Position numbers and translations under genes: made by a program. 50,596 nt of DNA. Source: Escherichia phage vB-EcoS-XT34. Below, in pieces: positions 617 through 48,008 of the stretch (position 1 is its first letter; the number at the start of each line of letters is the position of its first letter). The notes beneath the pieces are model-generated. The model was not told the origin of the DNA, did no database searches, and saw only the letters and a list, made by a program, of their open reading frames with translations. The DNA is taken from the sequence record OR767160. One strand, given 5' to 3'.

Positions 617-1138
617 ATGTCAAATCATAATCAACACGTAAGCCTGGGCGATGTCGTCCGCTACATGGCGGAGCAGGCTCTTAAGGCCGACGACCGAACT
701 TTCCATGTCCCAATCCATCTAATAGCTCGCCAGGTTTACGGCCTCACATCTAGTGATATAGGAGGCATAAGTCGTGAGGATCTGGATGTAGGTGGCAAGT
801 ACAGTATGGCAAAGCTGAAGCCGTCATATGTCGCCAATACGGTAGCCAGGATGCCAGAGATACAGGCGGCAAACGTTCGTGCAAAATTTTCAATTAAGGA
901 TGGTGATTTCGGTGATGACGTCGAGGTTCGGTGTGCTTATCTGTCTTTGGTTGATGGCGCAATCCAGACAGGAAAGCGAGTGAAGGCAAACTGCCAGATT
1001 GCAGAGAAGGCTGTGAGCGACTTTAAGGTCAAAATACTCAAGCTGATGCCATCCGTGACTAACTTTGAGGGCGATGAGATTACAGGAGCCATCAAGGCAA
1101 TCAAAATGTACCAGGAAATGATTAGGGAGACGAAATAA
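617..1138 (+). CDS. hypothetical early protein
   Basis: 173-aa ORF, first gene of the rightward early block, stop overlaps the next start (ATGA-type coupling). Confidence 0.5.
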   Translation: MSNHNQHVSLGDVVRYMAEQALKADDRTFHVPIHLIARQVYGLTSSDIGGISREDLDVGGKYSMAKLKPSYVANTVARMPEIQAANVRAKFSIKDGDFGDDVEVRCAYLSLVDGAIQTGKRVKANCQIAEKAVSDFKVKILKLMPSVTNFEGDEITGAIKAIKMYQEMIRETK

Positions 1139-1701
1139 TGGGGATGTTTGATTTTAACGAAGAGAAGCTGACAGATGAGCAGATTATGAAGATTGCTACG
1201 GAAGATGGGCTTCCACCACTACGAGTTGCAATCAATGCTAACGGATACCGACAGTCACAAAAGTACTGGTGCGAATTAGAAGTTATGCGTCGCGCAAACC
1301 TAAATCGTGAACAATGCGTCGTGGTTGAAAAGATCTGGAAGCAAGCGATAAATGGAAAAGGCGTTGTGGGAGTTCGCTCAACATATGAGGCGATCAGAAA
1401 GGTCCAGCCGTTCGTCGAGCGTAATGGAGTAATGAATAACCTGATTGACAATATCCTACCATCACTACAGGACGCGGGAATCATTTGCCTTATTGGTGAC
1501 AAGATATATGCACACCCATACCTGGTGGGCATGTATGGGAGAGACATTCACAAGTGGTGCGACTCATGGAGATCGGTTGAGCGCAAATCTCATAGCAAAT
1601 TGCAGTCAAGCTCAGACATGATTCATGGCTATGATGCCGATGAGGTGGAGAAGGCCATCCAGTTCTACCGGAAAGCGAAATCTCTCCTGAACGGTGAATA
1701 G
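1138..1701 (+). CDS. hypothetical protein, mini-paralog of the 527-aa protein at 46425-48008
   Basis: N-terminus MFDFNEEKL..LPPLRVAINANGYRQSQ and central NGKGVVGVRSTYEA..CLIGDKIY match the N- and C-terminal ends of the 527-aa protein; stop TAG lies inside the box motif. Confidence 0.6.
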   Translation: MGMFDFNEEKLTDEQIMKIATEDGLPPLRVAINANGYRQSQKYWCELEVMRRANLNREQCVVVEKIWKQAINGKGVVGVRSTYEAIRKVQPFVERNGVMNNLIDNILPSLQDAGIICLIGDKIYAHPYLVGMYGRDIHKWCDSWRSVERKSHSKLQSSSDMIHGYDADEVEKAIQFYRKAKSLLNGE

Positions 1702-3597: not shown

Positions 3598-4353
3598 ATG
3601 AACAGCATCAACCGTTATATCCCTGTGTCAGTGCCAACCAGCGTCAATATTCACGGCGTCGGAATGCAATCCTGCGACGATGGAGCATGGGTATCCTACG
3701 CAATGCATAAAAAAGAAATCGAGTCCTTACAGGCACGTTTAAAGGCCTTAGAATCGACTCAAAAACATCAAATTTCTGCACCGTCGATTATCGCTGACCA
3801 TGTTGAGCAGGCAATCAAAGAGGCTGTAGGTAAGCTGGTGCACGAAGTATGTGAGAAATTGCTCAAGGATTTGCCTAAGTACAATGGCGATCCGTGTCAC
3901 AGCACTGTCGATGCATTCGTGAATGAGCTTGCGGCTGGCCCAGGGAAAACCGTTAAGGATGACACTTGCAGCGTCGAAGATGAATTGACGAAGAACGGAA
4001 AGTTCAATTTCGGGACTAATTTTGGTGAAGGTAAGTCGCTTACAATGTCAGTAGGCGAATGCGAGTCAGCGAATGATCGCAAGGTGGCTGTTTGCTACCA
4101 TGTTAACGGAAATATGTTTATCAACGGTTGCGAGTATGAGTATGAAGCTGATGAATGTGAGCCAGGGTGTGAGCCGAGCATTATTCATATCGTACAAGAT
4201 GCATTCGTCTCTGATTTAAAAGGAGATTATCGCTGGAATGCCAGGAAGATTGGTAAGAGGATTGGTGATATTATTGAGGACAAGGCAATTCTTAACGATA
4301 CATATGCGATCATGAGTCAAGATGGCGTAGTTGCTAAATTCTACATTAAATAG
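3598..4353 (+). CDS. hypothetical protein, Cys-rich C-terminal half
   Basis: 251-aa ORF, N-terminal predicted coiled coil, several Cys pairs near the C-terminus. Confidence 0.5.
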   Translation: MNSINRYIPVSVPTSVNIHGVGMQSCDDGAWVSYAMHKKEIESLQARLKALESTQKHQISAPSIIADHVEQAIKEAVGKLVHEVCEKLLKDLPKYNGDPCHSTVDAFVNELAAGPGKTVKDDTCSVEDELTKNGKFNFGTNFGEGKSLTMSVGECESANDRKVAVCYHVNGNMFINGCEYEYEADECEPGCEPSIIHIVQDAFVSDLKGDYRWNARKIGKRIGDIIEDKAILNDTYAIMSQDGVVAKFYIK

Positions 4354-4393
4354 CACGATTTGTTAAAAGGGGATTCATCCTGACTGGTATAAT
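4351..4393 (+). promoter_or_regulatory. box element (TAGCACGATTTGTTAAA) plus TGgTATAAT
   Basis: box overlapping stop, 22 nt to an extended -10-like TGgTATAAT. Confidence 0.5.
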
Positions 4394-4424: not shown

Positions 4425-5042
4425 ATGAATCAGCTTTACACTATGATTAAGCATCACCTTCAAACGGAAGCGGTAAACAAGAAAGTTTACATATTTGATT
4501 TCGATGGTACTCTGTCGGACAAAACGCACCGCCTGCACAAGCTACCGACCAAGGATTTGCACCTCACTGAGTCATGGCTTGAATTTAACTCTCTGAGCAA
4601 GTTCGATACGCCATTCCAGGAAACGATTGACGTAATGAATGGCCTGTTCGCTTCCGGCGCTTTCATCATCGTGCTTACTGGTCGATCTGATGCAGTGGTT
4701 GAGGAATCAACGCAATGGCTTCATGATGCTGGCGCTAAATACAACGTTCTTGTCATGCGCCAGGCTGATGATAACCGCAAGGATACGATCATCAAGGAAG
4801 AGTTTTTACGATACATTGGATTGCACCGCATCACCGCAGCGTGGGATGATAGTTCGAATGTTATTGCGCACTTCCGAAGCCTGGGCATCACAACCTATCA
4901 GGTGTGTGACTATGGCGACAACGCGCACTCCGGCCTTAAGTCTCACGGCGTAGAGAAAGTTTGCGAGCACGAATTTAGCGATCCGCTACCTCCGCATGGT
5001 GTTCGCCAGTGCAAAAAATGCAATCTCGTAAGCGGTAAATAA
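4425..5042 (+). CDS. HAD-superfamily phosphatase (candidate nucleotidase or polynucleotide 3-phosphatase) with C-terminal Cys cluster
   Basis: motif I FDFDGTLSD near the N-terminus; C-terminal C..C..C..CKKC suggests a zinc ribbon. Confidence 0.55.
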   Translation: MNQLYTMIKHHLQTEAVNKKVYIFDFDGTLSDKTHRLHKLPTKDLHLTESWLEFNSLSKFDTPFQETIDVMNGLFASGAFIIVLTGRSDAVVEESTQWLHDAGAKYNVLVMRQADDNRKDTIIKEEFLRYIGLHRITAAWDDSSNVIAHFRSLGITTYQVCDYGDNAHSGLKSHGVEKVCEHEFSDPLPPHGVRQCKKCNLVSGK

Positions 5043-5091
5043 AACTAAACTTAACGGGCGCACATTGCGCCCACTACTCAGGAATATCAAA

Positions 5092-5712
5092 ATGTCAAAG
5101 ATTATCATTCTCAACGGACCTGCTGGCGTAGGTAAAGACACAATCGGCAATGCACTGGCAGCAGATTACAATTGCATCCCGACCAGCTTCAAGCGTCCGA
5201 TGTTTGAGATTGCCGCATCCATCCTTGGTGCCAGGGCTTTCTCAAAGTTCATCACGGCTTATGATGACCGAGATCAGAAAGAGATGCCTCAGAGCTTCCT
5301 TGGTGGCAAGACATGCCGAGAGTTCATGATCTGGATTAGCGAGTCGGTGGTCAAGCCGCTATTTGGCAACCAGCAATTCGGAAAGCTGATGAGCGAACAT
5401 ATCCAGCTGTGCGATGAAGGATTCTGTTTTGTTTGCACTGATGGCGGTTTTCCTGATGAGGTTATCCGCCTGGTGGAAGATGGTCACGATGTTACCCTTG
5501 TCCGCCTGTTCATGGATGGCAAGACTTTCGCGGGAGATAGCCGTGATTACATCCGCATCAAGGAATCGCACTTCCCTGATTACAAGAAATATAACGAGCA
5601 TGATGTGCATCTGGTAAATGGTGATGTTGATGATGGCGTCCTTAAAGTAGTTCGCGCTTGCTTGGTTAGTCCTTCAATGGATGATGATTGGGCAGACGAT
5701 ATTCCTTGGTAA
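5092..5712 (+). CDS. P-loop kinase, dNMP kinase-like
   Basis: MSKIIILNGPAGVGKDTIG resembles the GxxGxGKDT loop of phage deoxynucleoside monophosphate kinases; start chosen at the ATG with an AGGAA RBS rather than the track start at 5065. Confidence 0.55.
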   Translation: MSKIIILNGPAGVGKDTIGNALAADYNCIPTSFKRPMFEIAASILGARAFSKFITAYDDRDQKEMPQSFLGGKTCREFMIWISESVVKPLFGNQQFGKLMSEHIQLCDEGFCFVCTDGGFPDEVIRLVEDGHDVTLVRLFMDGKTFAGDSRDYIRIKESHFPDYKKYNEHDVHLVNGDVDDGVLKVVRACLVSPSMDDDWADDIPW

Positions 5713-5713
5713 A

Positions 5714-5756
5714 TAGCACGAATTGCTAAACCCGCTCCGGCGGGTTTTGTTATAGT
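5714..5756 (+). promoter_or_regulatory. box element (TAGCACGAATTGCTAAA) plus -10-like TATAGT
   Basis: canonical box, spacer contains the GC hairpin cccgc-tccg-gcggg, 22 nt to TATAGT. Confidence 0.5.
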
Positions 5757-5785: not shown

Positions 5786-5944
5786 ATGATTACTATCAAC
5801 CTGTCAGACAAGCAAGCTGTCATCCTTAAGCAACTACTGGCGACTCAGACTATGCAGTGCTCAGCCGATGAGTTCTCAGAGATGGTTAAAGAGGTTCGCA
5901 CTCAGATCAACAATCAACAATTTGACGAAAACGAAGGGGAATAA
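5786..5944 (+). CDS. small hypothetical protein (52 aa)
   Basis: hand-translated ORF with AGAGGAAA RBS, fills the gap between flanking genes. Confidence 0.3.
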   Translation: MITINLSDKQAVILKQLLATQTMQCSADEFSEMVKEVRTQINNQQFDENEGE

Positions 5945-5946
5945 CC

Positions 5947-6345
5947 ATGAAATTACGTTGCACAAAGATTAATCCATGCGCATCAGAATGGTTTAAGAAA
6001 GACTTTCAGGTTGGCAAGGTGTATGAGGCAGAGCGCAGTAGTGATATCTACACAGGCACAGTAGATGTTATTGGTGGTAGTGAAGGGATTGTTTGGTGCA
6101 TTATACAGAAAGGAAGCAAATTCAACCTAAGCATCGGAAGTGGACCTGCTGTCACGTTCGAGATGGTAAAGGGTACGCGTCGCATGGTTGTAACTGAAAA
6201 GCGTGTAACTGACCTGCGGTTTGATAAGCGACGAGTTCGCCGCCTTTGCCGACAGTACGGTAAGCGACGATTCACCAAACCTGAAATTTTCAGCTTTAAA
6301 ATATGGTTGGAGTTGAAAAAGATTGCACGAAATTACCAGCGATAG
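5947..6345 (+). CDS. hypothetical protein, basic C-terminus
   Basis: 132-aa ORF; N-terminus MKLRCTK..VGKVYEAE resembles the leftward ORF at 49333-49575. Confidence 0.45.
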   Translation: MKLRCTKINPCASEWFKKDFQVGKVYEAERSSDIYTGTVDVIGGSEGIVWCIIQKGSKFNLSIGSGPAVTFEMVKGTRRMVVTEKRVTDLRFDKRRVRRLCRQYGKRRFTKPEIFSFKIWLELKKIARNYQR

Positions 6346-6951: not shown

Positions 6952-7190
6952 TGTTTGGATTAACCGATCCGCAGATGAACGCAGTAAAGGCCAAGGCCAA
7001 GCAATTAAACGCAGCGTATGCCACCCTTAGCAAGAAAGATCGCAAAGATGATAAGATGGTTGCCTCAATTATTACCAAGCACCATGAGGCCGTAGCGACC
7101 ATTATATCGCGCTCTCGTTTTATTTGGATTGCTGGATACATAGAGGGTAGATGCGGAAGGCGGGATGATGGAGAATGTATTTATGATTGA
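6951..7190 (+). CDS. hypothetical protein
   Basis: 79-aa ORF; its 3-prime end overlaps the HNH gene start, so boundaries are uncertain. Confidence 0.3.
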   Translation: MFGLTDPQMNAVKAKAKQLNAAYATLSKKDRKDDKMVASIITKHHEAVATIISRSRFIWIAGYIEGRCGRRDDGECIYD

Positions 7191-7683
7191 TATAAATGAT
7201 TACCTTTCATATGATGAGTCAAGCGGCGACCTAATATGGGCATTTAAATTAAGCAGAAAGGTAGTTGTCGGATCGGTAGCTGGATGCAAGTGCAAAAGAG
7301 ATGGTTATATAAAGGTTAGGTTTGAAAATAGGCTTTACTTGGCTCATAGGATTATATGGGAGTCTGTAATGGGGAGAATACCAGAAGGGATGCAGATTGA
7401 TCATATAAACCACAATAGGTCAGATAACAGGGTGGAAAATTTAAGGCTTGTTACGCATATCGAAAACGGCATGAATCAATCAAGGAGCGTTAGAAACAAA
7501 AGCGGTGTAACTGGAGTGTCATGGCAGAGCAGGGATAAGAAGTGGAAGGCGGTAATTTCAAAGGATAGAAAGGCAATCAGTCTTGGGTATTTCAATAACT
7601 TCGATGATGCGGTGGCTGCTAGGCTTAGTGCTGAAATTGAATTTGGTTACCATGTAAACCATGGAAGAAAATTAAAGGTGTAA
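7165..7683 (+). CDS. HNH homing endonuclease with AP2-like DNA-binding domain (copy 1)
   Basis: HRIIWE..IDHINHNRSDNRVENLRLVT motif plus C-terminal AARLSAEIEFGYHVNHG; paralogous to five other copies. Confidence 0.75.
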   Translation: MMENVFMIDINDYLSYDESSGDLIWAFKLSRKVVVGSVAGCKCKRDGYIKVRFENRLYLAHRIIWESVMGRIPEGMQIDHINHNRSDNRVENLRLVTHIENGMNQSRSVRNKSGVTGVSWQSRDKKWKAVISKDRKAISLGYFNNFDDAVAARLSAEIEFGYHVNHGRKLKV

Positions 7684-37179: not shown

Positions 37180-39174
37180 ATGTTGCCTATCGAGAAGCTA
37201 GTTGCAAACTTCGATAAAGAAAGAATTAAACAGATTCAGAAGGATTACCAGTTTGGAGAGATAACCCCTTACGAATTCCAGTGTGTTACATTTGATGCAA
37301 TCGGAAAGGCCATTGGGAAGTATGAAAGCCCATTCATAGCAGACCTGTCGGTTTCTGCTGGTAAAACTATCATTCTCGCCATGATCGGTAAGAGAATGGA
37401 ACAGTTAGGGCTTCCTTATATGGTGCTATCTCGCCAGTCTGAGATTGTGAGCCAGGACAGCGAAGAGCTTCGCAATTTTGGCATTCGTAATAGCGTCTAT
37501 TGCGCTGGCCTTAACGTTAAATCAGTTTATTACCCAACCATAGTTGCTAGCGAAGGAACTGCGGCTAACGGCTTATTTAAGGGGCTTGGTGACTATGTTC
37601 CTGCCGTTATAGCTATAGATGAGTGCCATATGGTCGATCACATGGATATCGTTGAAGCCGAGGAGAACGAAGAAACATTTGAGCAAATGAGCACAAAGAA
37701 AGGCGAGATGGTTTTTAAGGATGGCGTAAACACAGGATTGCTTGGCACTGGTCGTGCGCAGTACACGCTAATCATTACTGAAATGAAACGACGTTGTCGT
37801 GAGAAGTATGGTCGCGAGCTTCGTATCTTTGGGCTAACTGGCAGCCCGTATCGCAACAATGATCACATAGTGGTTAGCAATCCAAATATCCGTGGATTCT
37901 GGCGCAAAACAGTGATCCAGGTCCCAACCAATTACCTTGTTGATTTGGGATTCGTTGTTCCAACTGTTTACGGAGAGGTTGGTGATTTGGGTTACGACCT
38001 TGCGGAGTTTGCTCCGGATGGCAGCGATGGTGTGAAAGACTTCAGCAAGAAAGAGATGGATGCAATGGCTGCAAAGATTCACGAAAACCAATCAATGACT
38101 CAAAAGATTATGGGTTTTCTTGTAAAAATTCTAGAGACTCGTAACGCCGCATTGGTCACCTGCGCCGGAAAACTCCATTGTGATGAGGCCGCTGCGGCAT
38201 TGCCGGATGGATACCCTTACGCCATTATCACCGATTCTACCGGAGAGAGGAAGCGCAGAGAGATTCTTGCAGATTGCCAGACTGGAAAGTACAAGATTAT
38301 CTTTCAGATTGGATGTCTAACCACGGGCGTAAACCAACCGCTGTGGGATACTAGCGTCATACTACGCAAGATTGGCAGTCTAACCTTAATGATTCAGCTT
38401 CTTGGTCGTGGCATGCGAAAACTAAAAAAGGCGCACATAGATGCTGGGTTCAAGAAGGAGGACCACTTGGTATTAGACTTTGCCGGAGCGCTTGATGACA
38501 TGGCAGAGCTTTACTTTGACCCAATAATTGAGGAGATTCAGGCTGAGAAGTTTAAATCCTCAAGAAAAGGTGGTGATGAGGCTCGCCAGTGTCCGAAATG
38601 TGGATATGAGAATTCGCCATTTGCTAGACGCTGTAGCAATAAGATTAATGGCGTTAGATGCGATCACTTTTTCCAGTTCACAACATGTGATGATATTACC
38701 GACCAACAAACAAAGGCGGTAATCAAGAAAGGTTGTGGAACTAAAAATGACATAGCAGCAAAAGTTTGTCGCGAATGCGGGGAAATGCTTAAAGACCCAA
38801 ACGCTAACCTGACTGGAAAGATGTATCGTCGCGGAGACTATTTGCGTGTTTATGACTTCCAGGTTGGATTGAGCAAAAATCAAACTGGCATTGTAGTTAA
38901 GTACAATATCATGGCCCACAACGGAGAAAGATTTAACGCTTGGGAGTTCTTTAATCCAGAATCTGACCATCGAGTTTGTAGTGTGCTATGGAAAAACTTT
39001 TGCCTTTCTCATATTGAGAATCGCACAGAGGCAGCACGAATTGGCAAACTTCGTAACGCAAAAATGATTATGATGAACGCAGATAAATTCCGAGCTCCTG
39101 TGCAGGTGACGCATCGTCGAAATGCAAAAGGTAAGGATATAATTGCCGTGAAAAATTTTGGAGAGTTAAAATGA
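37180..39174 (+). CDS. superfamily 2 DNA helicase
   Basis: 664 aa, Walker A SAGKT, DECH box (IAIDECHMV), C-terminal Cys cluster. Confidence 0.75.
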   Translation: MLPIEKLVANFDKERIKQIQKDYQFGEITPYEFQCVTFDAIGKAIGKYESPFIADLSVSAGKTIILAMIGKRMEQLGLPYMVLSRQSEIVSQDSEELRNFGIRNSVYCAGLNVKSVYYPTIVASEGTAANGLFKGLGDYVPAVIAIDECHMVDHMDIVEAEENEETFEQMSTKKGEMVFKDGVNTGLLGTGRAQYTLIITEMKRRCREKYGRELRIFGLTGSPYRNNDHIVVSNPNIRGFWRKTVIQVPTNYLVDLGFVVPTVYGEVGDLGYDLAEFAPDGSDGVKDFSKKEMDAMAAKIHENQSMTQKIMGFLVKILETRNAALVTCAGKLHCDEAAAALPDGYPYAIITDSTGERKRREILADCQTGKYKIIFQIGCLTTGVNQPLWDTSVILRKIGSLTLMIQLLGRGMRKLKKAHIDAGFKKEDHLVLDFAGALDDMAELYFDPIIEEIQAEKFKSSRKGGDEARQCPKCGYENSPFARRCSNKINGVRCDHFFQFTTCDDITDQQTKAVIKKGCGTKNDIAAKVCRECGEMLKDPNANLTGKMYRRGDYLRVYDFQVGLSKNQTGIVVKYNIMAHNGERFNAWEFFNPESDHRVCSVLWKNFCLSHIENRTEAARIGKLRNAKMIMMNADKFRAPVQVTHRRNAKGKDIIAVKNFGELK

Positions 39175-39653
39175 ATTGGAATGATGTTTTCGAGTACGTA
39201 GAAGGAAAGATTTTCTGGAAGGATAGTGGGAAAGGTAGGAAGTCTGGTGCTGAATTTGGTTGCATATGCAATACGTGGGGTTATGTTATTGGCACCCTTA
39301 GAGGAAGGACTGTTAGGGCCAATCGTTTAATATGGGAGATGCATAATGGGCCAATACCAAACGGAATGCAAATTGACCACATCAATCACATTAGGCATGA
39401 TAATAGAATTGAGAACTTGAGGCTTGTTAGTAATCAGGAAAACAGCAAAAACAACTCAATGCGAAAGAATAATACTTCTGGAGTTACAGGTGTTTGCTGG
39501 AATAAACAAAAAGGAAAGTGGATGGCTAAAATAAAAGTTGATTACAAAACCATAAATCTTGGTTTGTATTCAGACATTGAAAAGGCCGTGGAAGCAAGAA
39601 AGCAAGCTGAGGAATTATACGGTTTTCATGAAAATCACGGGGTTAATTTATGA
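39171..39653 (+). CDS. HNH homing endonuclease with AP2-like domain (copy 4)
   Basis: NRLIWEM..IDHINHIRHDNRIENLRLVS and EARKQAEELYGFHENHG. Confidence 0.75.
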   Translation: MNWNDVFEYVEGKIFWKDSGKGRKSGAEFGCICNTWGYVIGTLRGRTVRANRLIWEMHNGPIPNGMQIDHINHIRHDNRIENLRLVSNQENSKNNSMRKNNTSGVTGVCWNKQKGKWMAKIKVDYKTINLGLYSDIEKAVEARKQAEELYGFHENHGVNL

Positions 39654-40139: not shown

Positions 40140-40643
40140 ATGAAATGGAGAAATCGAATACAATATAAAGATGGTTCACTTTACTGGCTTGAGGCGAAAG
40201 ATAAAAGCAAATCATTCAATCATCGACTTTCTGGAAAGAAAATAGGAACGGTTATGAAGGATGGTTACATGAGATTCAGGTTTAATGATAAAGCATACTC
40301 ATGCAGCAGGGTGACGTGGGAGTACTTTAATGGAGAAATTCCTATCGGAATGGAGATTGATCATATAAACCATATAAGAGATGATAACAGAATTGAAAAT
40401 TTAAGATTGGTATCAAGATCTGATAATCAAAAAAATCTAAGTATATCAAAAAACAACAAATCAGGAGTAACTGGCGTCACATACCATAAACCTTCTGGTT
40501 TATGGTCCGCCAGAATAAACTCTGGAGGAAGAAGGTTTGAGCTTGGCTACTACAAAACCATAGAAGAAGCAAGGTTGGCAAGAATTGATGCTCAAAATGA
40601 ATTTGGTTTTCATGATAATCATGGAAAGAAAATAAAAAATTAA
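40140..40643 (+). CDS. HNH homing endonuclease with AP2-like domain (copy 5)
   Basis: SRVTWEY..IDHINHIRDDNRIENLRLVS and EARLARIDAQNEFGFHDNHG. Confidence 0.75.
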   Translation: MKWRNRIQYKDGSLYWLEAKDKSKSFNHRLSGKKIGTVMKDGYMRFRFNDKAYSCSRVTWEYFNGEIPIGMEIDHINHIRDDNRIENLRLVSRSDNQKNLSISKNNKSGVTGVTYHKPSGLWSARINSGGRRFELGYYKTIEEARLARIDAQNEFGFHDNHGKKIKN

Positions 40644-42713: not shown

Positions 42714-43856
42714 ATGGCTATTCAGAAGATTAGTGACGAACAATTCATTGCTGAGCGCGAAGCTGGTAAAACACTCCGCCAGATTGCCCAGGAATACGGG
42801 ATGAACATTCGAACTGTTGAGCAGCGCTCAAGCCGCCTGGCAAAGCGCGGTGAGTTCCACGGGAATAAACACGTAAGCGTACACGTGCCAGAGGGCTTTC
42901 AGGTTAAAGGCACGTCAACCATGATTCGCGCTGACGGTTCCGAGGTCGTGCGCTGGGTTAAGACCGATCAGGACAAGGAGAAATTAGCCGCCATGATGGA
43001 TGCTGCTATTGAAGCATTCTGTGACGAACTCCCGCGCGCAGCTCCTCAGCCTATTCTTGGCGAGCCTCACTATGATGAGAATCTCCTGGCCCTGTATCCA
43101 GTTTTCGATCTCCACATCGGAGCAATGGCCCACAAGCATGAATGCGGCGAGAATTACAGCACCGACATCTCTGAGAAAGTTCTCAAGAACTTCTTTGATT
43201 ACTCGGTTGGTGTATCTCCTAAAGCAAAGAAAGCCGTATTGCTAATCGGCGGTGACTTCCTTCACTCAGACGGCCTGGACGCTGTAACGCCTGCAAGCGG
43301 TCACGTACTGGATCAGGATAGTCGATACGCCAAGCTAGTTCACGTTGCAATCCGTTCCGTACGCCGCGCGGTGGCGCTAATGCTGGATAAGCACGAAGAG
43401 GTCGAAATCCAGATCATTGAAGGTAACCATGACCAGGCTGGCATGATTTGGTTGCGTGCAGCAATGGCGGCATACTTTGAAGATGAGGCGCGCGTAACGG
43501 TTGATACGTCTCCTATGATTCTTCACCGTACAAAGTGGGGCAAAACATTGCTTGGATACACTCATGGTCACACCATGAAGAAAGCTGATACTCGACTGGC
43601 GGCAATGGCGACTGACTTCCGCGAAGAGTTCGGTACGAGCAAGTATATTTACACGCATAGTGGCCATTGGCACCATCAGACGATCACGGAAGGAACTTTG
43701 GGGATTGATGAGGTTCACGGTCAGCTTGGCGCGAAAGATGCATATGCGGCGCGCGGCGGTTGGCGCTCATATCGCCAGGCGGCGGTAATTGTCTACTCCA
43801 AGGAGTTCGGCGAAGTCGGTCGCTTCGTTTACCGTCCTGAAATGAGCGACATCTGA
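42714..43856 (+). CDS. HTH-containing calcineurin-like metallophosphoesterase
   Basis: N-terminal HTH-like LRQIAQEYGMNIRTVEQR; phosphoesterase motifs DLHIG, GGDFLHSD, GNHDQ; a duplicate start at 42487 lies in the pre-gap copy. Confidence 0.55.
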   Translation: MAIQKISDEQFIAEREAGKTLRQIAQEYGMNIRTVEQRSSRLAKRGEFHGNKHVSVHVPEGFQVKGTSTMIRADGSEVVRWVKTDQDKEKLAAMMDAAIEAFCDELPRAAPQPILGEPHYDENLLALYPVFDLHIGAMAHKHECGENYSTDISEKVLKNFFDYSVGVSPKAKKAVLLIGGDFLHSDGLDAVTPASGHVLDQDSRYAKLVHVAIRSVRRAVALMLDKHEEVEIQIIEGNHDQAGMIWLRAAMAAYFEDEARVTVDTSPMILHRTKWGKTLLGYTHGHTMKKADTRLAAMATDFREEFGTSKYIYTHSGHWHHQTITEGTLGIDEVHGQLGAKDAYAARGGWRSYRQAAVIVYSKEFGEVGRFVYRPEMSDI

Positions 43857-44448: not shown

Positions 44449-44949
44449 ATGAAGCAGAAGCTTGTAATTAGTGCGGCGACGGCTGCAGCAATATACATTG
44501 CAGCACCGATCATTGAGCTTGTAGAAGGCGTGGAGAACAAGCCATACATGGACATTGCTGGAGTGCCTACGGTCTGCGCTGGAGTTACTGGCTCCGATGT
44601 GATATGGGGCAAGAGCTACAGTAACAGGGAGTGCCGGAACTTGCTGGAGAAGCACATTCAGATTCATGGCAAGCATGTGCAGAATGCAGTCACCTACCCT
44701 ATATCCCCAAAGACAAGGGCGGCGCTAATCAGTTTTAGCTACAACGTTGGCGGATACGCCATGAGGAAGTCTACATCTGTAAGGCTAATTAACCAGGGTA
44801 AGGTTGAGCAGGGTTGTAAGGCTCTAGGTATGTGGACAAAAGCAAGAGTAAATGGGAGGCTTGTTACAGTAAAGGGTTTAGTAAACCGAAGGAATGAAGA
44901 GATTAAGCTATGCATTGAGGGTGAGATGGAAATGAAAAGGGGCAATTAA
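44449..44949 (+). CDS. endolysin, lysozyme-like with N-terminal signal-anchor-release (SAR)-type domain
   Basis: 166 aa; weakly hydrophobic Ala/Gly-rich N-terminus followed by E..D..T catalytic spacing (IELVEGVENKPYMDIAGVPTVC). Confidence 0.7.
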   Translation: MKQKLVISAATAAAIYIAAPIIELVEGVENKPYMDIAGVPTVCAGVTGSDVIWGKSYSNRECRNLLEKHIQIHGKHVQNAVTYPISPKTRAALISFSYNVGGYAMRKSTSVRLINQGKVEQGCKALGMWTKARVNGRLVTVKGLVNRRNEEIKLCIEGEMEMKRGN

Positions 44950-45476
44950 GCCCCGTGATTTTCGTGAAAGCCTAGCTCCATCTCTGCGGCTTTTCTAGCT
45001 AAGACTGCATCATCGAATGAGTCTCCGTAGTAAAGCCGCTTATTCTTGCCATTAATTTTTATCTGAGAGAACCATTTACCCCTTGCTGAGTCCCAGCACA
45101 CACCAACGACTCCGGATGTATTTAAAGAAGACATTGGCATGTTCATTTCCTGATCAGACCTTGATGCCAGTCTTAGGTTTTCAATTCTATTATCATCCTT
45201 AATGTGGTTTATATGATCGATCTCTATACCATCAGGTATCTGGCCTTTGTGCATTTCCCATATAATCCTATGCACCTTCCTGTACCTGTTGTTAAATCTA
45301 ACCAATAGGTATCCATGTTTATCTGGAGTTCCAACCATTTTTCCGGCATTTCTTGAGTTGTACTGATTGCTCATGTCATCACGACGCTTCCTCCATAAAT
45401 TATTTCCGTCATAATGAAAGTATTTTGACCAGTTCATGTATACTATCCTCTCTAGTTTCATTTCATCAACAATCAT
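44946..45476 (-). CDS. HNH homing endonuclease with AP2-like domain (copy 6)
   Basis: HRIIWEM..IDHINHIKDDNRIENLRLAS and FDDAVLARKAAEMELGFHENHG; on the opposite strand, between endolysin and spanin genes. Confidence 0.75.
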   Translation of the reverse strand: MIVDEMKLERIVYMNWSKYFHYDGNNLWRKRRDDMSNQYNSRNAGKMVGTPDKHGYLLVRFNNRYRKVHRIIWEMHKGQIPDGIEIDHINHIKDDNRIENLRLASRSDQEMNMPMSSLNTSGVVGVCWDSARGKWFSQIKINGKNKRLYYGDSFDDAVLARKAAEMELGFHENHGA

Positions 45477-45493
45477 ATCAAAGGTGGTAATTT

Positions 45494-45883
45494 ATGTTTT
45501 TGCAAAAAATGCTATTATGCTCTGTAATTCTGCTTTCAGGTTGTTCGGCGACATCTGCGCTGACTGGTTTAATTGGCAGCAAGCCAGAAATCAGTGCGCA
45601 GGCTGGGGCTGAGAACGTGAAGCAAACGGTAGGTGTTACAGGAAAGGTGGATAAGTCAAACGACAACGACACCACTATCAAAGATTCAAAGGTAGGAAAG
45701 GTTGATACGTCAAACGGGAAATCTGTCAGCACATCAAGCATCAAGGCTGACACTATCGTTGCTGATAAGATTGAAATAAGGAATGATGAAGGAGGTGGAA
45801 GGATTGCGTTTGGACTTGCTTTAATTCTAATTAGCCTATTGCTTTTCTCATTTACAATATGGACTACTTTTCGCAAAAAATAA
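45494..45883 (+). CDS. unimolecular spanin (u-spanin) candidate
   Basis: N-terminal lipoprotein signal with lipobox LLSGC-S and a single C-terminal transmembrane helix, as in the phage T1 u-spanin. Confidence 0.55.
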   Translation: MFLQKMLLCSVILLSGCSATSALTGLIGSKPEISAQAGAENVKQTVGVTGKVDKSNDNDTTIKDSKVGKVDTSNGKSVSTSSIKADTIVADKIEIRNDEGGGRIAFGLALILISLLLFSFTIWTTFRKK

Positions 45884-45886
45884 AAG

Positions 45887-45910
45887 GAGCCGAAAGGCTC
45901 CCTTTTTTTA
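45887..45910 (+). terminator. rho-independent terminator
   Basis: ggagcc-gaaa-ggctcc followed by CTTTTTTT; same hairpin as at 15088. Confidence 0.7.
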
Positions 45911-46046
45911 CCCAAATCTTTGCACCAGTAGCAACAATTCACCTTCATTATTGCATAGAGTATGCTCATCACGTCGTCCGGCACGCATTGATGAATTTAG
46001 CATTGACAGCAGCGCTTGATTAAGCCCGTCCTCACTAATCCCATTC

Positions 46047-46424: not shown

Positions 46425-48008
46425 TTACCCCAGCAGTCGCGGATTAATGTAAATCTTATCACCAATCAGGCACGTATAGTTCTTCTCATCCAGCATAGGG
46501 ATCAGGTGATCTTTGATGCGAGTCATTACGCCACTTTGCCCTTCAAAGGGCTTAACCTTACGAGCCGCTTCATATAGTGATCGGACACCTACAACGCCTT
46601 TCCCGTTCTTACCTTGCTTGATCAGAATGTCGATCAGCTTATTCATCTCCGCATGGTCGCCAGCATGACCAGCAGCGTTTGCAGATGACAGATAAGTCTT
46701 ACTCAGTTCCTGGAACATAATTACCGCTTCCTGCATTGTGTCAAGCTCAATCTCTCTGGACTTCTGCGGACTCCCGCCATTGGGATTAAACCAGTTACGC
46801 ACAGTGTGAAGAACAGCCGCGATCCTGATAGCCTGCTTATCGAACTTACCCAGCGCGCCGCGAAGCATTGTGTGTGAATACTTCCCGCCGTCCGCAAGGT
46901 GAGGTTCCATATCCTGACGCGCACGGTTGAGATATTTCATCGCCGATGTGCTCACTGTCAGATTGACTTTGTGTTCGCTCATGATCTCATGGACCAGACG
47001 GAAGTAGTCCGCCTTGAGTCCGCCATCAATCGGCTCGTATGTTGATTCGCCTTTTTCGTCAACGAATACACGCTCGCCAAGGAATGACTTCTCACGCACA
47101 AGCAAGAAACGTTCTGACACACCGATACCACGCGCACCAGCATTCATGATCGCGTTGATTGTTTCATCCTGTGCAATTACAGAGATGCAACCCATCGCAA
47201 TAAAGCTCATGTTATTGTCTGCGTTTGCACGCGCGATAGATACGTTTCCAGCATCCCATGCTTTCAGCACAAGCTCGCTGTTCGTTTTCTTTGAGCCGTC
47301 ACCATAGGTCATGCCTAAAAGTGAGTTCACGCTCGTTGCTTCATCCGAGATCACAGAGAAATTACCCTGGCGGTTGTTGATTCGTGCAAGACCTTCCGGC
47401 GTGGTGTCGGATACGGGGAATACGATGTCACAAAGGCGTTCCAGTTTTTCTTCCAGTTCTTCTTTTTCCTCAAACAGCGCCGCCATGTCAGATGGTGATT
47501 TCTCCTGCTTCATCTCCTTGGATAGAGCGGAAAGCTTAGCCATAATCTTCTTGCGGTCGCGCTTTCGGATCTCGTTGAGTCGTTCAGTCTCTGCGATCAT
47601 CGGGGCCAGCGAAAGTGAGTTAATGGCTGATTTACCTGTCGATGGTGGCTGACTGGTTACGACGTACAGCGCGGTAGGCTGTTGTGTTCCGTGATACTCA
47701 ACCGTAAATCGGCCCAGCATGGCGGCTGATATGCATCCGAGGAAATGCATGTAAGCGGACGACTCGGGGAACTGAACTGAACGAGCGGCATTGCTTGACA
47801 GCTTACCAACGACATCATAATCGTTACCAAGTGAGATAACCGGATATTTGTCACCGCCTGAGTCAATTTCTGTTGGGGCTTTCCAGAACGACTGGCTCTG
47901 CCTGTACCCATTCGCATTAATGGCAACGCGCAAAGGCGGCAGGTTGTCGGCAGCGGCTACAGCCATTACCTGATCGATTGACAATTTATCTTCGTTGAAA
48001 TCAAACAT
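46425..48008 (-). CDS. large P-loop-like protein of unknown function (candidate NTPase)
   Basis: 527 aa, deviant Walker A PPSTGKS and Walker B-like VISDE; N- and C-terminal segments shared with the 187-aa protein at 1138-1701. Confidence 0.6.
   Translation of the reverse strand: MFDFNEDKLSIDQVMAVAAADNLPPLRVAINANGYRQSQSFWKAPTEIDSGGDKYPVISLGNDYDVVGKLSSNAARSVQFPESSAYMHFLGCISAAMLGRFTVEYHGTQQPTALYVVTSQPPSTGKSAINSLSLAPMIAETERLNEIRKRDRKKIMAKLSALSKEMKQEKSPSDMAALFEEKEELEEKLERLCDIVFPVSDTTPEGLARINNRQGNFSVISDEATSVNSLLGMTYGDGSKKTNSELVLKAWDAGNVSIARANADNNMSFIAMGCISVIAQDETINAIMNAGARGIGVSERFLLVREKSFLGERVFVDEKGESTYEPIDGGLKADYFRLVHEIMSEHKVNLTVSTSAMKYLNRARQDMEPHLADGGKYSHTMLRGALGKFDKQAIRIAAVLHTVRNWFNPNGGSPQKSREIELDTMQEAVIMFQELSKTYLSSANAAGHAGDHAEMNKLIDILIKQGKNGKGVVGVRSLYEAARKVKPFEGQSGVMTRIKDHLIPMLDEKNYTCLIGDKIYINPRLLG

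Follow-up and report, generated by a model that had tools for sequence, protein, structure and literature searches.

A standalone Pnkp-type phosphatase gene and a gp1-type kinase gene in a T1-like phage: a possible nucleotide-salvage cassette

The two-gene unit and its surroundings

Two adjacent genes in Escherichia phage vB-EcoS-XT34 encode a predicted phosphatase and a predicted kinase. We analyzed a stretch of 50,596 nucleotides (sequence record OR767160; one strand, 5' to 3'), called the window below, and defined the following features of the pair, its surroundings, and a third gene located elsewhere in the window.

4348-4367, + strand: copy 1 of a repeated intergenic motif, AAATAGCACGATTTGTTAAA, upstream of the phosphatase gene
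4425-5042, + strand: standalone Pnkp-family HAD 3'-phosphatase gene (predicted activity), 205 aa
4962-5021, + strand: optional C-terminal zinc-ribbon-like module of the phosphatase, C180-E-H182-x14-C197-K-K-C200 (from motif counts in homologues)
5056-5072, + strand: intergenic RNA hairpin GGGCGCA-CAU-UGCGCCC between both genes (from folding energy)
5092-5712, + strand: T4 gp1-family (d)NMP-kinase-like P-loop kinase gene, 206 aa
5711-5747, + strand: copy 2 of the repeated motif (5711-5730), overlapping a terminator-like hairpin (5728-5747) with a T-run after it
42714-43856, + strand: metallophosphoesterase gene with an N-terminal HTH ('DNA repair exonuclease', phrog_704, 2e-152)

In the phosphatase reading frame, which is as given in the open reading frame list of the window, the motif IFDFDGTLSD includes D25, D27, and T29, whose codons are at approximately 4497-4511. 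The kinase P-loop, GPAGVGKDT, is encoded at approximately 5116-5142. The start of the kinase gene in the open reading frame list, a TTG at 5065, was rejected in favor of the ATG at 5092, because all homologues begin with MSKIIIL or MAKIIIL and the sequence AGGA is found eight nucleotides before that ATG.

By their sequence context, the phosphatase and kinase genes appear to form a bicistronic unit of their own. Copies of a 20-bp motif, AAATAGCACGA(A/T)TTG(C/T)TAAA, bracket the pair, beginning at 4348 and 5711. This motif is present 11 times in the window (0.05 copies expected), its orientation follows that of the genes, and its most common variant is a palindrome (TAGCA-N5-TGCTA). It is a possible promoter or operator; a scan for sigma-70 promoters gave no confirmation of a promoter ahead of the two genes. 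The hairpin in the 49-nt gap between the genes has a folding energy of -13.5 kcal/mol (z of -4.0 relative to shuffled sequences) and has no T-run on the + strand, and therefore is not a + strand terminator. The terminator-like hairpin and motif copy 2 mark the end of the two-gene unit.

The window is from a Drexlerviridae (T1-like) genome. We based this assignment on the ~1.8 kb around the pair, which is ~90% identical to the corresponding region of ~50 kb T1-type E. coli siphoviruses, including P817, BUCT-XGG-1, ETEP102, ESCO41, and others. The names given to the two genes in these relatives are 'polynucleotide kinase' or 'polynucleotide kinase phosphatase' for the first, and 'hypothetical protein', 'P-loop NTPase', or 'deoxynucleotide kinase' for the second. 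Genes of ETEP102 (ETEP102_13/14), TLS (gp09/gp14), and KanT1 are direct orthologues with the same annotations (~90% nucleotide identity in the region) and have no essential difference from those in the window, except that the window phosphatase has a putative zinc tail that many relatives lack. Both genes are thus already annotated, though uncharacterized, in T1-like phages, and the cassette has appeared in the literature: a 2026 paper on Drexlerviridae described PNK and dNMP kinase genes following that for a DNA repair exonuclease, and proposed that they enhance nucleotide supply (PMC13164509).

The phosphatase and its optional tail

Judging from its conserved residues, the phosphatase is a catalytically intact Pnkp-type enzyme that stands alone, without a kinase domain. 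The first-pass annotation, made from the window alone, had recognized a HAD protein by the sequence FDFDGTLSD, and this identification held. The protein matched Pfam family PF25109 (HAD_PNKP) with a score of 69 bits (cut-off of 27.6; E of 6e-19) over 139 of the 143 profile positions, and it falls in phrog_415 of PHROGs. In a search of PDB sequences, its sole significant solved relatives were the phosphatase domain of T4 Pnkp and Pnkp1 of C. gingivalis, and its fold is closest to those of solved Pnkp phosphatase domains. Because there is no kinase domain, the database name 'polynucleotide kinase' is a misnomer for this phosphatase-only gene.

The catalytic residues of Pnkp are conserved in the window protein. 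In pairwise and profile alignments, T4 residues D165, D167, T169, R176, S211, R213, D254, K258, D277, and D278 correspond to D25, D27, T29, R36, T85, R87, D120, K124, D141, and D142, respectively (R36 was placed by hhalign). All of these positions are invariant in 35 diverse homologues, except T29, which is conserved in at least 90%. Mutagenesis in the Shuman laboratory reportedly identified D165, D167, R176, R213, D254, D277, and D278 as the essential residues of T4 Pnkp.

The phosphatase also differs from its solved relatives. The HAD phosphatase of T4 PseT (PDB 1LTQ, 5UJ0) is the C-terminal part of a protein with an N-terminal kinase domain, which the window protein lacks, and C. gingivalis Pnkp1 (PDB 4XRP), part of the Pnkp1-Rnl-Hen1 RNA repair complex, joins kinase and phosphatase in one protein and has an RNA ligase and Hen1 as partners, neither of which was found in this phage. 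Compared to the T4 enzyme, the window protein is longer by ~14 residues between motifs I and II, a stretch that contains an invariant H-L-T-E-S-W..F segment absent from PseT, and it has the optional, putatively zinc-binding tail. Insertions at this point of a HAD enzyme make up the cap, which influences the choice of substrate; the one found here fits, if weakly, with a small-molecule substrate.

The phosphatase ends in a conserved cysteine- and histidine-containing module (...QVC161DYG...VC180EH182EFSDPLPPHGVRQC197KKC200) in which C180, H182, C197, and C200 are the likely metal ligands of a putative zinc site. The initial description of this region as a four-cysteine zinc ribbon was right about there being a module and wrong about the cysteine count. 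Its first cysteine, C161, belongs to the final strand of the HAD core and is replaced by V, T, or I in many homologues, and a cluster that includes it was rejected; C-x-H...C-x-x-C is the likely pattern. We found C-x-H-x(n)-C-x-x-C in 29 of 120 representatives of homologue clusters, with one copy in 25 and a tandem pair in 4. The other 91 lack the module and end shortly after ...SHGV(D/E)K. A tail of this type was correctly flagged as unusual for HAD nucleotidases, but it is not rare, occurring in about one fourth of the phosphatase family. The ligands are kept while the sequence of the loop between them varies, indicating that the pattern is not due to chance; the loops in homologues with the tail are of the type 'PLPPHG', as in the window protein, or 'W-x(8-13)'. 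In the AF2 model, residues 179-205 of the tail form short strands with pLDDT values of 63-75, and the linker (residues 162-178) has values below 50.

Close phage relatives differ solely in the presence or absence of this tail (T1, Rtp, and others are among those without it), and further relatives of the phosphatase have unrelated C-terminal extensions of other kinds. These comparisons mark the phosphatase C-terminus as a hotspot at which small modules are added, the putative zinc motif among them. Among the real open reading frames of the window, only the phosphatase has such a module with the C-x-H-x-[WF] signature of the family, and no second copy was found in them. The window primase carries a different finger, of the CxxC type. 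We also considered that phages without the tail might encode a free-standing zinc ribbon between the two genes. None was found, and this idea was rejected; the 36-aa open reading frame in the 108-nt gap between phosphatase and kinase genes in these phages encodes a hydrophobic peptide, MNLYEFIAAHPVLTVIILLIINHTIINVAKLFLGRY.

The variable tail bears on a possible counter-defense function, which we consider very improbable. The phosphatase and kinase, with or without the metallophosphoesterase, would destroy or modify a host nucleotide, toxic or used in immune signaling, bearing a 3'-phosphate or pyrophosphate, for example alarmone-like molecules or 3'-pyrophosphorylated tRNA. The location in an early gene region, the highly variable phosphatase C-terminus, and the patchy distribution among related phages are circumstantially consistent with such a function. 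However, we saw no similarity to a known anti-defense enzyme, the genes are in a DNA-metabolism context, and the catalytic core is highly conserved, as for a housekeeping role.

The kinase and its likely phosphate acceptor

Profile comparisons indicate that the kinase is a full-length homologue of T4 gp1, a dNMP kinase, and we predict that it has dNMP kinase activity. The P-loop had been noted at the outset as resembling those of phage dNMP kinases, and profile searches had been proposed as a way to separate dNMP kinases from polynucleotide kinases. The searches bore out the resemblance. The kinase matched phrog_139 ('deoxynucleoside monophosphate kinase') with an E-value of 2.4e-43, compared to 1.8e-65 for T4 gp1. 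A broad profile of 61 diverse kinase relatives aligned by hhalign with full-length gp1 over 174 columns (probability of 93.5%; E of 2e-7), whereas its alignment with T4 Pnkp was limited to 26 columns of the P-loop. A narrow profile aligned with 45 residues of gp1. The fold of the kinase is closest to that of gp1 (1DEK). There was no significant match to the kinase among PDB sequences, and its matches in Pfam were to P-loop families and below threshold.

The kinase family is large, and its members differ from gp1. It has 3770 representatives at E≤1e-3. The window kinase is 17-18% identical to gp1 (PDB 1DEK), which has 241 aa and two insertions; members of the window kinase family have ~190-206 aa, lack both insertions, and have a different LID (G-D-S-R-x-Y). 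We found no characterized member of this ~190-206 aa subfamily in the papers searched, and there is no annotated dNMP kinase gene in the 40-89 kb region of T5.

The conserved residues of the kinase point to a phosphate as the acceptor. The P-loop (G9-PAGVGKDT-17) is of the NMP-kinase type, G-x-x-G-x-G-K-D-T, and the invariant or nearly invariant residues are K15, D16, K34, R60, K63, R76, S83, E84, K88, D117, E123, D149, and R151, of which R60, K63, R76, K88, and R151 are basic. Kinases that act on 5'-OH ends have a general base after strand 2 (D35-x-x-R38 in T4). The kinase family has no acidic residue and no invariant Asp/Arg pair after strand 2, and the window kinase does not have the combination characteristic of polynucleotide 5'-OH kinases, G-x-G-K-S/T together with Asp-x-x-Arg (K15, S16, D35, R38, and R126 in T4). 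The basic residues, the G-K-D-T loop, and the missing general-base Asp therefore favor a phosphate acceptor, (d)NMP, over a 5'-OH end.

Gene linkage, a third partner, and a possible role in nucleotide salvage

Synteny and gene fusions indicate that the phosphatase and kinase are functionally linked. We sampled 80 viral loci from IMG/VR that were recovered with the kinase. The phosphatase gene is upstream of the kinase gene and on the same strand in 64 of the 80 loci and downstream in none; most of the loci are from related Drexlerviridae, and therefore this count is not independent evidence. The distance between the genes ranges from a 34-nt overlap to a 2.1-kb gap, with overlaps of 1-4 nt in nine loci, and the longer gaps contain small open reading frames or homing endonuclease genes. 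Autographiviridae/Melnykvirinae (Klebsiella phage K59PH2 and Aeromonas phage ST21) share this order, here with stop codons that overlap start codons, in a block encoding a 5'-3' exonuclease, endonuclease VII, a metallophosphoesterase, the HAD phosphatase, the dNMP kinase, and RNA polymerase. In addition, three rare proteins (P0261, P0391, and P0267) are fusions of an N-terminal phosphatase and a C-terminal kinase. They are from separate phage contigs and different samples, are as little as 37% identical to each other, and share a conserved motif in the linker.

The two genes are also found apart. They are separated by five genes in TLS. By tblastn, 1440 phage records contain the kinase and 2806 the phosphatase, and the host spectra of the two differ. 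In the T4-like Krischvirus, the end of nrdB is overlapped by a gene for such a standalone phosphatase; a second tblastn match lies in another part of the genome and is presumably the canonical pseT.

We considered that the two enzymes might have separate jobs, which seems possible but somewhat unlikely. The phosphatase would heal DNA or RNA ends with a 3'-phosphate or 2',3'-cyclic phosphate, making them usable by host ligase or polymerase, as with the C-terminal domain of T4 Pnkp; the kinase would be an ordinary dNMP kinase; and the genes would be adjacent merely because they belong to a shared block of early DNA-metabolism genes. The closest characterized relatives of the phosphatase are indeed end-healing enzymes, each family is widespread without the other, the genes of TLS are not adjacent, and 10 loci have the kinase with a metallophosphoesterase and no phosphatase (see below). 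On the other hand, the three fusions, which represent no fewer than two divergent lineages, favor a common pathway or complex, as do the fixed order and translational overlap in two unrelated phage families.

The kinase is at least as tied to a putative exonuclease as it is to the phosphatase. The fused phosphatase-kinase genes are followed by a phrog_704 ('DNA repair exonuclease') gene whose 386-aa product has metallophosphoesterase motifs and an N-terminal HTH. The metallophosphoesterase encoded in the window is 45% identical to this product; its gene is away from the phosphatase-kinase pair, unlike the cassettes in other phages. A search with it against PDB sequences found nothing. In 21 of the 80 loci, and also in Melnykvirinae, the metallophosphoesterase gene is directly upstream of the phosphatase-kinase pair or of the kinase alone: 11 loci have contiguous metallophosphoesterase, phosphatase, and kinase genes, and 10 have the metallophosphoesterase and kinase genes without that for the phosphatase. 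There appears to be no earlier description of the rare fusions, of the metallophosphoesterase-kinase pairs without phosphatase, or of the optional C-x-H...C-x-x-C module.

These arrangements resemble those of enzymes that heal nucleic acid ends. Mammalian PNKP has a phosphatase followed by a kinase, the order found in the rare fused relatives, and bacterial Pnkp (Clostridium thermocellum) combines a metallophosphoesterase and a P-loop kinase, like the cassette. The window kinase differs from both in being of the NMP-kinase/gp1 type, without the catalytic motif of 5'-OH kinases, and we found no ligase or FHA module. The first-pass annotation had offered, as one of two readings, that the pair is a split version of T4 Pnkp that repairs tRNA. 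We think it unlikely that the pair is a split or alternative Pnkp in which the gp1-like kinase would act on 5'-OH ends and the HAD protein on 3'-phosphates, perhaps joined by the metallophosphoesterase acting as a cyclic phosphodiesterase, to heal breaks made by anticodon nucleases or other defense nucleases of the host. The phosphatase half fits, as it is a true member of the Pnkp family, and the putative zinc tail could bind nucleic acid. In contrast, the similarity of the kinase to T4 Pnkp ends after the P-loop, and healed RNA ends could not be sealed by E. coli. To our knowledge, no E. coli ligase joins RNA ends of the 3'-OH/5'-P type. A PHROGs scan detected neither an RNA ligase nor a DNA ligase in the 10 otherwise uncharacterized window open reading frames of at least 140 aa, where a very divergent one is possible, and none is annotated in ETEP102, a relative that is ~90% identical in this region. 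There are no tRNA genes in the window. In a paper on the Eco2 retron, PNK figures only as a laboratory reagent.

A variant of the end-healing idea, that the metallophosphoesterase, the Pnkp-type phosphatase, and the gp1-like kinase are an unrecognized end-healing system in which an NMP-kinase-type domain replaces the polynucleotide 5'-kinase, is in our estimation quite unlikely. If it were true, T1-like and Melnykvirinae phages would repair DNA or RNA ends damaged by host defense nucleases, and the optional zinc ribbon would guide the phosphatase to nucleic acid.

The best explanation, to which we give about an even chance, is that the pair supplies the phosphatase and the kinase of a nucleotide-salvage cassette that is widespread in phages and has the metallophosphoesterase/exonuclease as its third part. 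A nucleotide-pool module was the other reading in the first-pass annotation, and it is the better supported of the two. The phage would degrade host nucleic acid, and the putative phosphoesterase/exonuclease would free nucleotides. The HAD phosphatase, using an aspartyl-phosphate mechanism with D25 as the nucleophile, D27 as the acid/base, and Mg2+ bound by D141 and D142, would strip the 3'-phosphate from DNA fragments, 3'-dNMPs, or 3',5'-bisphosphates; left in place, it would stall exonucleases or leave products that could not be used further. The gp1-like kinase would then transfer the gamma-phosphate of ATP to 5'-dNMPs, and host Ndk would convert the resulting dNDPs to dNTPs for phage DNA synthesis, so that flux would run from host nucleic acid to phage DNA. 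The C-x-H...C-x-x-C tail would be an optional zinc module that probably aids binding to nucleic acid or to a partner protein. Breakdown of the host chromosome and reuse of the resulting nucleotides have been reported for T1 and TLS (PMC11447400).

Salvage is supported by the linkage of the two genes and their fusions, the tie of the kinase to the metallophosphoesterase, the position of the cassette after the 5'-3' exonuclease and endonuclease VII genes in Autographiviridae/Melnykvirinae, the overlap of the phosphatase gene with nrdB in Krischvirus, the Pnkp family membership and catalytic residues of the phosphatase, the homology of the kinase to gp1, its NMP-kinase-type P-loop and basic residues, and the finding of no ligase in the scanned open reading frames or among the annotated genes of a close relative. 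Several observations weigh against it. The proposed substrates are those of distant relatives (27-30% identity for the phosphatase; 17% for the kinase), and for the nearest characterized phosphatases, T4 Pnkp and Pnkp1, the substrates are polynucleotide ends undergoing repair. Ends left by common phage and host DNases are 3'-OH/5'-P, so DNA salvage has no obvious need of a 3'-phosphatase. The fusion of a phosphatase to a P-loop kinase is the architecture of an end-healing enzyme, much of the synteny comes from related phages, and the TLS genes are apart.

For this window, the findings matter little: the orthologues are annotated, and a role in nucleotide supply has already been suggested. The label 'polynucleotide kinase' on a phosphatase-only gene, however, misleads. 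Of broader interest is the recurrence of a cassette of phosphatase, gp1-like kinase, and metallophosphoesterase genes, with rare fusions, in two unrelated phage families, which poses a concrete and inexpensive biochemical question: which 3'-phosphorylated substrate would feed the dNMP kinase.

Fused, kinase-only and phosphatase-only arrangements

The phosphatase and the kinase are occasionally joined in one protein. In the rare natural fusions (proteins P0261, P0391 and P0267; coordinates below), a Pnkp-type phosphatase is N-terminal and a gp1-like kinase is C-terminal, and the fusions share the linker motif AAG..M.K.G.F.GPE[LI]HG. The next gene encodes a metallophosphoesterase of phrog_704.

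Phosphatase-kinase fusions in viral loci
L002, 8001-9212
L004, 8001-9242

The kinase gene was also found immediately downstream of the metallophosphoesterase gene in ten viral contigs of about 44 kb (L055-L057, L059, L063, L074, L075, L079, L080 and L083). No phosphatase gene was found in these ten contigs, including by profile search.

The phosphatase also occurs as a standalone protein. In Escherichia phage MIZ2 (Krischvirus; L092, 3546-4022), a Pnkp-type phosphatase of 158 amino acids overlaps the end of nrdB. Away from the nrdB-linked gene, the MIZ2 genome gave a second tblastn match, presumably pseT, the T4 polynucleotide kinase/phosphatase gene.

The spacer between the two genes and homing endonucleases

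In the window, the spacer between the phosphatase and kinase genes contains a stable, GC-rich hairpin (5056-5072, GGGCGCA-CAU-UGCGCCC; -13.5 kcal/mol, z -4.0). There was no T-run after this hairpin on the coding strand, and it might be an element for RNA processing or stability. The 108-nt gap between the two genes of T1-type phages is occupied by a conserved hydrophobic ORF of 36 aa (MNLYEFIAAHPVLTVIILLIINHTIINVAKLFLGRY; 5889-5999 in the T1-type locus L060, and in similar T1-type loci). In relatives, the phosphatase gene is parted from the kinase gene by homing-endonuclease insertions of the HNH kind found in the window, where the three phrog_99 ORFs are paralogues.

HNH ORFs in the window
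39171-39653, +, homing endonuclease, phrog_99
40140-40643, +, homing endonuclease, phrog_99
44946-45476, -, homing endonuclease, phrog_99
7165-7683, +, HNH-like, assigned from its own sequence only

Other ORFs and a repeated intergenic motif

The 187-aa ORF at 1138-1701 (+) matches phrog_7327 as well as the C-terminal region of phrog_2373, a 'DNA helicase' family. A 527-aa member of the phrog_2373 family is at the opposite end of the window (46425-48008, -), and the shorter ORF may be a duplicated C-terminal module. Neither the 251-aa ORF directly upstream of the phosphatase-kinase operon (3598-4353, +) nor the 168-aa ORF at 45478-45984 (-) hit any PHROG family at E<=1e-3.

The intergenic motif AAATAGCACGAATTGCTAAA, 20 bp long, is present in 11 copies in the window, versus 0.05 expected, and contains the palindrome TAGCA-N5-TGCTA.

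Copies of the 20-bp motif
+ strand: 1696, 2453, 4348, 5711, 25841, 35540, 40064, 41614
Minus strand: 30492, 48496, 50089

Every copy in the window has the orientation of the adjoining genes. The repeated motif probably serves the phage as a promoter or an operator.
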